A stretch of DNA of 64,000 bases, taken from a bacterium (GTDB lineage Bacteria > Bacillota_I > Bacilli_A > RFN20 > CAG-826). Under the pieces are notes generated by a model. The model made no database searches. It was not told the origin of the DNA and saw only the letters and a list, made by a program, of their open reading frames with translations. The stretch covers positions 26,317 to 90,316 of the forward strand of contig CAVHQU010000001.1 of the NCBI GenBank assembly GCA_963638555.1. The letters are read 5' to 3'. Shown one piece after another: positions 59,572 to 60,943 of the stretch (position 1 is its first letter; each line of letters starts with the position of its first letter). A program made the position numbers and the translations under genes.

Positions 59572-59961
59572 TTAAATCTCAAATGCGAAGTGAACGGACC
59601 AAATATTTGGATTTTCGGCCATAGAAGTATAAGAAACCTTAAACGAAGACTTGAAATTGAAACCAAGAGAATCCGTGTCCCTAAAATCTTTCGTGAAATA
59701 CAAACAATCTCCAGCAAAGTTTAAAGTAACTTTATTAGAATCGTAAAAATAACAATCTTTTCCATCGACGTTGGAATAAGTTACTAAAGTTGATTTGTCT
59801 CTTATCGCACCGTAATTAATTGAATTGTATTCTTCAACGGGGATGATTAGGAGACAAATTTCTTCCTTGGCATCATCTTCGGTTTTAGAATTGCAACCCA
59901 AAGAAACAAATGGAACAGCTAACAACAATAAACTAGCAAATATTTTTTTCGTGATATTCAT
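59572..59961 (-). CDS. Small lipoprotein downstream of the S1B peptidase gene
   Basis: MNITKKIFASLLLLAVPFVSLGCNSK lipobox. 129 aa. Lies 13 bp after the peptidase stop. Confidence 0.5.
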   Translation of the reverse strand: MNITKKIFASLLLLAVPFVSLGCNSKTEDDAKEEICLLIIPVEEYNSINYGAIRDKSTLVTYSNVDGKDCYFYDSNKVTLNFAGDCLYFTKDFRDTDSLGFNFKSSFKVSYTSMAENPNIWSVHFAFEI

Positions 59962-59974
59962 AGTACTTTCTCCA

Positions 59975-60943
59975 TTATAAAGCCCAATCTTCTCGAGCGG
60001 TAAGTATCCATGATTCGATGTAGGAAGATATCCTAGAAGATATCCTACAAGCTATATTATAATCTAAACTTGAGCTATGAATTCCTCCGCTATGTATTCC
60101 TACAATTACATTTGAATTACCGTAAAAAATAGGCGCTCCACTCGATCCGGCTAAAGCGTCAATACGATGAAAGAACTTATAATCGGTTAATGTATTTCTC
60201 ACTTTATCGGAAGCATATGCCATTTTACCCGTTGTTCCTTGATAAGCAACCATTCGAACGCTCGTTGTATCGATGCTCATAGAATGGTTCATGGCATCAA
60301 AGTAACCATAAGTATCTCCAACGTTTGAATTTAATTTGCAATATACCCAATCATCAGAGGCGTCACCAGTTCTATAGTTCACACCAACGTTGTAAGTGGA
60401 AACTTCACAAGTTTCAACGCATGTAGATTCAACTGGCGTCCCATCAACTTCTACATAAACTTTAGTCTTGAGTGGCCAACCATAATTAGCACTATAAACA
60501 ACATGTGATGCTGTTAATAAAACATTGGATCCGACTAAAGCGCCAGTGCCGTAAGACGAAAAATCAGCTTTCCCATCCTTATTGCTATCATATTCGCAAA
60601 CCAATTGAACGATCCCTCGATAAGGCCATTTCTTAAGCTGGGAACTTGAAACATCTTGCAAATTGTGATTATAGATTCCGTCACTTGATGTTTTTCCTGA
60701 TGTATCCACATGTGGCTCATACGTAACATCATCTGTACGATCAGGATCAATATCATGTTCAAGAAGTTCATCATAAAGAAAAGATGGTTTTTCACCATAC
60801 TCATACATAATGTGATTAAAGTTCAAATTATTTTGAGTTGCTTGTTCAACCATATTACTAGCAGCCAATGTACTAACAGTTCCTTCGACTTTGTTAGAAA
60901 AACAAGCGCATGCTATGCAAAGAATGCTAATAAACGTTCCCAT
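59975..60943 (-). CDS. Secreted S1B-family (V8/glutamyl-endopeptidase-like) serine protease with N-terminal pro-region
   Basis: Signal peptide. His region GTGALVGSNVLLTASHVV. Ser region DALAGSSGAPIF...VIVGIHSGG, matching the V8 pattern GxSGSPVF...IGIHxGG. Confidence 0.7.
   Translation of the reverse strand: MGTFISILCIACACFSNKVEGTVSTLAASNMVEQATQNNLNFNHIMYEYGEKPSFLYDELLEHDIDPDRTDDVTYEPHVDTSGKTSSDGIYNHNLQDVSSSQLKKWPYRGIVQLVCEYDSNKDGKADFSSYGTGALVGSNVLLTASHVVYSANYGWPLKTKVYVEVDGTPVESTCVETCEVSTYNVGVNYRTGDASDDWVYCKLNSNVGDTYGYFDAMNHSMSIDTTSVRMVAYQGTTGKMAYASDKVRNTLTDYKFFHRIDALAGSSGAPIFYGNSNVIVGIHSGGIHSSSLDYNIACRISSRISSYIESWILTAREDWAL

Follow-up and report, generated by a model that had tools for sequence, protein, structure and literature searches.

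An S1 serine protease gene and a small lipoprotein gene, very probably inserted together between pflA and pflB in an uncultured lineage of Bacilli

In a 64,000-nucleotide stretch of DNA from an uncultured gut lineage of Bacilli (Bacillota), hereafter the window (contig CAVHQU010000001.1, positions 26,317 to 90,316), two genes stand between pflA and pflB. The first encodes an S1 serine protease of 322 amino acids (positions 59975-60943 of the window, minus strand); the second, directly downstream, encodes a lipoprotein of 129 amino acids (59572-59961, minus strand). An earlier note, made by reading this DNA, had proposed that the two form a module of a protease and its cognate partner that was inserted at this locus. 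Having compared the locus with its relatives and the pair with its homologues elsewhere, we are highly confident both of the insertion of the module and of the functional coupling of its two genes.

The interval between pflA and pflB

On the minus strand, the genes of the locus are ordered M18 aminopeptidase (62636-63907), Crp/Fnr-family regulator (61944-62639), pflA (61092-61835), protease, lipoprotein, and pflB (57137-59386). This arrangement was compared with those of a sister lineage (L001/L002), which is 87-88% identical to the window in the nucleotide sequences of M18, crp, and pflA, and of a more distant clade represented by six contigs from different samples (L008-L013). The latter share 72-80% nucleotide identity with the window in the flanking genes, and their PflB falls in the same 90% cluster. 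All six have the upstream order PPIase-PRK-M18-Crp/Fnr-pflA, as in the window, and in all six pflB follows 60 bp after pflA. Among the pflA-pflB loci compared, only those of the window strain (also represented by L003, whose proteins are 100% identical) and of the sister lineage carry the module. The synteny check thus bore out the insertion that had been proposed.

The limits of the inserted DNA were placed by DNA alignment, with local alignments judged against shuffled sequences. Homology to three of the uninserted contigs (L008, L010, and L012) breaks off some four codons short of the pflA stop and picks up again approximately 15 nt ahead of the pflB FNR box. These breakpoints delimit a segment of approximately 1.63 kb (59473-61104, minus strand) that is absent from the related genomes. 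At its upstream edge, the C-terminus of PflA has been remodelled, reading KKDDDLK* in the window vs. KKDENLI* in the uninserted relatives.

The segment contains, in order, a terminator, a promoter of its own, the protease gene, the lipoprotein gene, and a second terminator. The earlier note's description of a module flanked by terminators agrees with our consensus scans, which located a terminator-like hairpin with a T-run just after pflA (61062-61077, minus strand) and another after the lipoprotein gene (59534-59550, minus strand), both inside the inserted DNA. The first hairpin has no counterpart when the segment is aligned with the 60-bp spacer of L008, L010, and L012. Ahead of the protease gene, the same kind of scan identified a sigma-70-type promoter, TTGACC-17-GATAAT (60973-61001, minus strand; 10/12 match), which is kept in L001 and has no FNR box.

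FNR boxes are found at both of the neighboring genes. A perfect FNR/Crp-type box, TTGATTCAAATCAA (TTGAT-N4-ATCAA), lies upstream of pflB (59444-59457, minus strand), with a -10-like TAAAAT 21 nt downstream of it; the box and its spacing are the same in the uninserted relatives. In L008 (5920-6000), and also in L010 and L012, the stop codon of pflA (TAA) is itself the central spacer of the pflB box, TTGATTTAAATCAA, such that the end of pflA and the promoter of pflB overlap. The note's statement that pflB has its own FNR-box promoter therefore holds, with the amendment that the box is ancestral and was not imported with the module, because relatives that lack the insert carry the same box over the pflA stop codon. 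A second perfect box, TTGATTTAAATCAA, precedes pflA (61887-61900, minus strand). The Crp/Fnr-family regulator encoded directly upstream of pflA has cNMP_binding and HTH_Crp_2 domains, and it is the likely reader of both boxes.

The opposite history, in which all four genes stood in this order ancestrally and the L008-type relatives lost the module by deletion, has only a very slim chance of being correct in our estimation. It gains something from the scope of the comparison, which spans two clades and has no further outgroup, and from the lack of a transposase, terminal repeats, or a clear target-site duplication to mark an insertion, a lack that weighs against our account. A deletion is nonetheless much less likely than an insertion, because it would have to recreate a perfect FNR box overlapping a stop codon; the uninserted clade has precisely this box over the pflA stop within a compact 60-bp spacer. 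Also opposing a deletion are the sizes of the protein clusters (118 members in the 90% cluster of PflB vs. four in that of the protease), the recovery of only two module loci from 185,579 species genomes, and the fact that the same module occupies five other unrelated loci, including one between tsf and pyrH.

The means by which the segment arrived was also considered. No transposase or integrase was found near the insert in 39-64 kb of the window, and the insert has no terminal repeats, inverted or direct. Junction similarity or target-site duplication did not exceed that of shuffled sequences; a 9-nt TGATT(T/C)AAA present at both junctions was not significant. These results rule against an insertion sequence, a transposon, or an integrative element. 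Compositionally, the insert is not anomalous (GC 0.33-0.375 vs. 0.373 for the window). A phage origin was set aside since no viral loci were found, and the only plasmid candidates were proteases of Bacillus megaplasmids at 25% identity. A defence origin was likewise rejected: the PADLOC match to LmuA (E = 1.9e-6) spans only the generic trypsin-like domain. The sole PHROG match in this search for origins was to a family of unknown function.

Other features of the locus are as the earlier note had described them. The two open reading frames were found on the minus strand at the same positions, with 13 nt between them, a gap that includes a GGAG ribosome-binding site. Likewise, the flanking genes are true pflA and pflB, each scoring above the cutoff of an NCBIfam equivalog model. 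The product of pflA, the pyruvate formate-lyase activating enzyme, attained 305.6 bits with TIGR02493 (cutoff 231.75) and has Radical_SAM and Fer4_12 domains; that of pflB, formate C-acetyltransferase, attained 1176.2 bits with TIGR01255 (cutoff 994.2) and has PFL-like and Gly_radical domains. The window holds no further copy of either the protease or the lipoprotein.

The protease and its paired lipoprotein

A word-based search retrieved three close relatives of the lipoprotein and six homologues of the protease. The protease homologues, at 37-57% identity, occur in five further unrelated contexts, which makes six with the window clade. In L004 the pair adjoins restriction-modification-type genes; in L005 it lies between an FtsX-like gene and pyrimidine genes; in L006/L015 it comes after csoR-copA; in L007/L014 it lies between tsf and pyrH; and in L019-L021 it adjoins a divergent pair of genes for an extracytoplasmic function (ECF) sigma factor and its anti-sigma factor. 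Two of these contexts merit description. The genes tsf and pyrH are normally contiguous; in L014, a metagenome-assembled genome of Bacilli from horse faeces, the module (3995-5267) sits antisense between them in the rpsB-tsf-pyrH-frr cluster. In L019 (1838-2886, minus strand), translation reveals that a sigma factor of the ECF type and a putative anti-sigma factor of the membrane are encoded divergently from the protease-lipoprotein pair, which may represent dedicated regulation of the module in that lineage.

Every context has the same arrangement. An open reading frame of 106-132 codons with a lipoprotein signal follows the protease gene directly and on the same strand, its start falling anywhere between 26 nt ahead of the protease stop codon and 13 nt past it. 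No protease homologue was found that lacked such a downstream lipoprotein, and the GC content of the hosts runs from 29% to 48%. Further, the paired lipoproteins are homologous to one another: they share a C-terminal motif, F-x-V-x-Y...P...Y-x-F, and are recovered by profile at E-values of 1e-27 to 1e-37. Judging from these comparisons, the lipoprotein is very probably a cognate partner of the protease, and the tight pairing over six contexts is the strongest evidence for this assignment. The earlier note had suggested as much from the single locus; the five additional lineages, each with a homologous small lipoprotein directly downstream in an unrelated setting, sustain the suggestion.

It could be argued that the two genes are merely co-located and that the lipoprotein has an independent role, as a binder of some substrate or ligand or even as a substrate of the protease, with no part in regulating it. 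Distant members of the lipoprotein family do occur without a protease, the predicted fold (below) is a generic one, and an interaction between the two proteins is presumed. Set against these points, orientation, adjacency, and minimal spacing have all been kept in six contexts at 37-57% protease identity and over a wide range of GC content, which is hard to explain if the genes are uncoupled. We consider simple co-location improbable.

Both genes are under purifying selection. Compared with L001, the protease has a dN/dS ratio of 0.088 and the lipoprotein one of 0.062, and by this measure both genes are functional. At every distance compared, divergence is faster in the lipoprotein than in the protease (identities of 90% vs. 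94%, 35-38% vs. 57%, and about 20% vs. about 40%). The protease gene shows a peculiarity at synonymous sites. Between the window (59975-60943) and L001 (9031-9987), it is 94-97% identical in nucleotide sequence along nearly its whole length, with a dS of 0.21; dS is 0.78-1.03 for pflA, crp, and M18 and 0.70 for the lipoprotein gene, so that the protease alone is low. It looks as though the protease gene was recently homogenised or transferred, or that it is constrained at synonymous sites.

What kind of protease is this? The Pfam models Trypsin (28.9 bits, cutoff 20.6) and Trypsin_2 (29.4 bits, cutoff 27.6) matched it weakly, though above their thresholds, and no NCBIfam model did. The catalytic triad H147 (TASH), D197/D198 (DDW), and S268 (GSSG) is invariant in the seven homologues, as is the His of a GIHSGG motif common to them, and the triad aligns with the catalytic regions of the glutamyl endopeptidases of known structure 1p3c and 4jcn. 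In a single-sequence search of solved structures, glutamyl endopeptidases were the best relatives (E about 3e-4). A family profile searched against the PDB matched the Bacillus intermedius glutamyl endopeptidase (1p3c) at E = 7.9e-19, followed by GluSE of S. epidermidis (4.3e-7), V8 (1.3e-6), exfoliative toxin A (4.7e-6), and Jep (3.2e-5). On the strength of these alignments, we regard the protease as a distant member of the S1 glutamyl-endopeptidase-type family. The earlier label of V8-like S1B protease was right at the level of the family; the profile search places the enzyme closer to the Bacillus glutamyl endopeptidase than to V8. The His of a GIHSGG-type motif fits Glu-specific enzymes, and the protease may be specific for Glu/Asp.

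The layout of the protease also recalls these enzymes. With the glutamyl endopeptidases and their kin (1p3c, GluSE 4jcn, V8/SspA 1qy6, exfoliative toxins, Spl, Jep), which supply its best PDB matches, it shares the His-Asp-Ser triad motifs, the GxSGxP and GIHxxG signatures, an apparent pre-pro organisation, and a catalytic domain that starts in the manner of DGIYGxDDR. In the present family, a hydrophobic N-terminus (residues 1-15; 60899-60943 in the window) is followed by a putative acidic pro-region of about 75-90 amino acids and by a catalytic domain that starts from about residue 90 with a conserved DGIY(G/N)xxx. The differences are that the similarity is only distant, that the hydrophobic N-terminus is uncharged, that the acidic pro-region is long, and that a lipoprotein obligately follows downstream; we know of no lipoprotein partner for V8-type or Bacillus-type glutamyl endopeptidases. 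The open reading frame of the window protease cannot be extended upstream. The protease is probably exported, a weaker statement than the "secreted" of the earlier note. In L006/L015, a canonical signal (MIKRIFSLFF...) stands in another frame across a poly-A run, which could reflect phase variation or an assembly error. In the window gene, moreover, a 12-bp unit (plus-strand sequence GAAGATATCCTA) stands twice in a row at 60024-60047, within the minus-strand protease gene; this perfect tandem duplication adds RISS to a predicted C-terminal helix. This duplication is specific to the window strain, being absent from L001 and P0004.

The lipoprotein begins with a canonical signal and lipobox, MNITKKIFASLLLLAVPFVSLG|C, in which the lipobox Cys is residue 23. 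After it come, by prediction, a flexible tether of about 20 amino acids and a five-stranded beta-barrel of about 85. In the AlphaFold2 (AF2) model, residues 24-45 are disordered, and a confident domain (pLDDT > 90) has one short helix and five strands; the domain models as a small, five-stranded OB-like beta-barrel. Sequence searches of Pfam, NCBIfam, PHROG, PADLOC, and the PDB returned no relatives of the lipoprotein, and none of nine members of its family matched Pfam even at E-values up to 5. An exhaustive search of 1.84 billion representative proteins yielded only 18 profile matches at E up to 1e-3; the distant ones also resemble small lipoproteins with the same C-terminal motif. This is an undescribed and very rare family. 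A distant member, P0039 (profile E = 2e-9), is encoded alone in L016 (1145-1483), about 360 bp downstream of pflB and before deoR-csoR-copA, with no protease. Two possible kinships were tried and rejected: as a mimic of the protease pro-region and as kin of a neighboring 179-aa lipoprotein, the lipoprotein received hhalign probabilities of 0.7% and 3%, respectively.

Possible roles of the lipoprotein

Of the documented systems, the one nearest to this pair is the potempin/KLIKK-peptidase network of Tannerella forsythia. Some of the peptidases that potempins target, the miropsins, belong to family S1. The following on the potempins is drawn from one report (PMC9890683). They are lipoproteins with 98-132 residues in their mature forms, folded as five-stranded OB or eight-stranded barrels, and most of them share only 4-14% pairwise identity. 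Their genes overlap or abut those of secreted peptidases; the linked peptidase is inhibited 1:1 with a nanomolar Ki, and the potempins protect the surface of the producer. PotB1 inhibits miropsin-1. The authors of that report also noted orphan small lipoproteins (PMC9890683).

The pair described here resembles these systems in several ways. It includes small lipobox lipoproteins, which at 106-132 amino acids are slightly smaller than the potempin precursors (118-152); the lipoprotein gene abuts or overlaps the peptidase gene, with spacings of -26 to +13 nt over the six contexts; and orphan small lipoproteins and a fast-diverging partner are found. A weaker likeness is the type of barrel, as PotA, PotC, and PotD have a five-stranded OB fold and our lipoprotein a predicted OB-like one. 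There are also differences. No sequence homology to potempins is detectable, a Bacillota host would imply anchoring in the cytoplasmic membrane rather than the outer membrane, and each genome here has one isolated pair vs. a cluster of six in Tannerella.

By this analogy, the likeliest mechanism would be as follows. A self-contained expression cassette of about 1.63 kb would have entered the gap that separates the 3' end of pflA from pflB's FNR-dependent promoter. Its first gene would specify an S1 serine endopeptidase made in pre-pro form, a relative of the Bacillus and Staphylococcus glutamyl endopeptidases; its second gene, closely spaced or overlapping, would probably be co-translated. The lipoprotein would be anchored on the outside of the cytoplasmic membrane, where its OB-like beta-barrel would bind the protease. 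As a specific, stoichiometric inhibitor, it would capture the protease at the surface of the producer and shield the cell's surface proteins, and protease that escaped into the medium would be active. The same logic has been demonstrated by experiment for the potempins of Tannerella forsythia and the KLIKK peptidases paired with them. Physical binding and inhibition of the protease by the lipoprotein are steps that we infer. We offer this reading, of a surface-tethered inhibitor specific for the protease alongside which it is produced, tentatively, at a confidence that falls a little short of even.

Several of our observations weigh against this proposal. The order of the genes, with the lipoprotein downstream of the peptidase, is the reverse of that in Tannerella, where the potempin gene is upstream. 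Structural matches to the lipoprotein model were weak (Z of 5.0 or less, Foldseek E > 0.1), and no potempin was among the best structural matches listed. All four of the distant lipoprotein relatives with available DNA (L016, L018, L022, and L023) do not adjoin a protease, and so the domain is not exclusively a protease partner. In five of six lineages, the protease starts with a hydrophobic, Cys-rich stretch of 12-15 amino acids with no preceding K/R, unlike the partner lipoproteins, which have normal charged n-regions; export is for this reason less than certain. The AF2 model of the protease, built from an alignment of seven sequences, had a mean pLDDT of 51; this is too poor for a fold search, and the classification of the enzyme rests on sequence. 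One observation counts in favor of the proposal, if weakly. In two metagenome assemblies, L020 (1279-2206) and L021 (2761-3688), a one-base insertion (CCC to CCCC) frameshifts the protease gene and leaves the lipoprotein gene intact; in a third, L019 (2761-3687), the protease gene is itself intact. The frameshift could be a real pseudogene, a phase variant, or a homopolymer or assembly error, and it is weak evidence.

A dedicated maturation or retention factor is a second way to understand the lipoprotein: it would be needed to fold or activate the protease or to hold it at the surface, in the capacity of a steric chaperone, an activator, or a dock in the membrane. Functionally, this would resemble the PrtM/PrsA lipoproteins that serve lactococcal PrtP, or the lipase-specific foldases. 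Tight, probably co-translated linkage in six contexts suits such a role; moreover, the lipoprotein would sit where the protease leaves the membrane, and the uncharged hydrophobic N-terminus of the protease could need help for export or anchoring. On the other hand, the lipoprotein has no PPIase or other known foldase domain, and its structured portion is only about 85 amino acids. In addition, the protease has a putative pro-region of its own (about 75-90 amino acids), and a pro-region is the usual intramolecular chaperone in the glutamyl-endopeptidase-type family. The intact lipoprotein gene kept beside the frameshifted protease in L020/L021 also speaks against maturation, weakly, as the lesion is a single C in a homopolymer. 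A role in maturation appears unlikely, if by no means far-fetched. Identity with PrsA/PrtM was rejected. Those proteins are likewise lipoproteins whose genes neighbor that of an extracellular serine protease, and they too work on the outer side of the membrane; they are parvulin-type foldases of about 300 amino acids, and PrtP is a subtilase. The present lipoprotein has 129 amino acids vs. about 300 and no parvulin PPIase domain.

The pair might instead be an interbacterial toxin-immunity module, in which a secreted antibacterial protease would attack the surface proteins or cell-wall peptides of competitors and the lipoprotein would confer immunity on the producer. This proposal overlaps with inhibition and differs from it only in the biological target. 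An enzyme followed by a small surface lipoprotein is a fitting layout, and so are the patchy, strain-level distribution, the insertion in unrelated loci, and the fast divergence of the small partner. The solo members of the lipoprotein family resemble orphan immunity genes, and the L004 copy resides among restriction-modification-type genes. However, the protease has no delivery or targeting domain (LXG, WXG100, or cell-wall binding), no secretion-system genes are nearby, and there are no phage or plasmid relatives. The solo lipoproteins, for their part, are only distant relatives (E of 1e-5 to 1e-11) and may act otherwise. We view this proposal as distinctly unlikely.

The inhibitor that we tentatively favor would not be of the staphostatin type. 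The staphostatin-staphopain operons (sspABC and scpAB) and Spi-SpeB are the classic co-transcribed inhibitors, as the potempin report recounts (PMC9890683). The present pair is like them in having the gene for a small beta-barrel inhibitor candidate directly downstream of the protease gene. Staphostatins and Spi stay in the cytoplasm, lack a signal peptide, and act on cysteine proteases; the presence here of a lipoprotein signal and of a serine protease as the partner ruled them out. A search of the literature for a serine protease with lipoprotein immunity returned nothing specific, the potempin paper being the only analogous one.

The region downstream of pflB, and significance

A second peptidase-lipoprotein pair is located 1.1 kb downstream of pflB (53750-56063, minus strand). 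It consists of a 179-aa lipoprotein (55524-56063; MKKKALKLLLLICLLSGC) whose gene overlaps by 11 nt that of a 594-aa protein (53750-55534). The latter protein had a sub-threshold match to the NCBIfam model NF045837, "putative cysteine peptidase" of the Mycoplasma type (E = 1.7e-8; 34.7 bits vs. a cutoff of 45), and no match in Pfam or the PDB. In this second pair the lipoprotein gene comes first, as in the potempin operons. The interval from pflB to csoR-copA is a variable hot spot. In the window (53750-56935), it is occupied by ZIP, the 179-aa lipoprotein, and the Cys peptidase; L001 (12910-13076) has lost the hot-spot genes, of which 167 bp from the 3' end of the 594-aa gene survive at 93% identity; and the L008-type relatives have DUF3990, Fic, and ZIP there instead (L008, 8700-12231).

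With respect to novelty, the protease adds a new and distant member to a known family, and a lipoprotein partner of a secreted peptidase is a known type of arrangement. To our knowledge, few protein inhibitors are encoded together with the secreted bacterial peptidases on which they act; these comprise the staphostatins, Spi, the serralysin inhibitors, and the potempins. The family described here is extremely rare and is confined to uncultured organisms, which limits its reach. The locus nevertheless provides a clean natural case of a cassette placed between an enzyme and its activase with neither FNR-controlled promoter disturbed.

A broader proposal can be made, with less confidence than we attach to inhibition itself. 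It is possible that these lipoproteins are a new, sequence-orphan, OB-like class of inhibitors specific for glutamyl-endopeptidase-type S1 peptidases, that they form the first potempin-like, surface-tethered, co-encoded system in Bacillota, and that the pair is a minimal cassette, with its own promoter and terminators, that lands in the gaps of conserved operons (pflA|pflB, tsf|pyrH) with no recognisable mobility gene. Should inhibition be confirmed, the lipoprotein would stand as the founder of a new family of inhibitors directed at glutamyl-endopeptidase-type enzymes, the first of potempin-like design in Bacillota, and it would supply a compact, specific reagent against this class of protease. 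It would also mean that the protection of a cell's own surface from its own protease arose independently in gut Bacillota.

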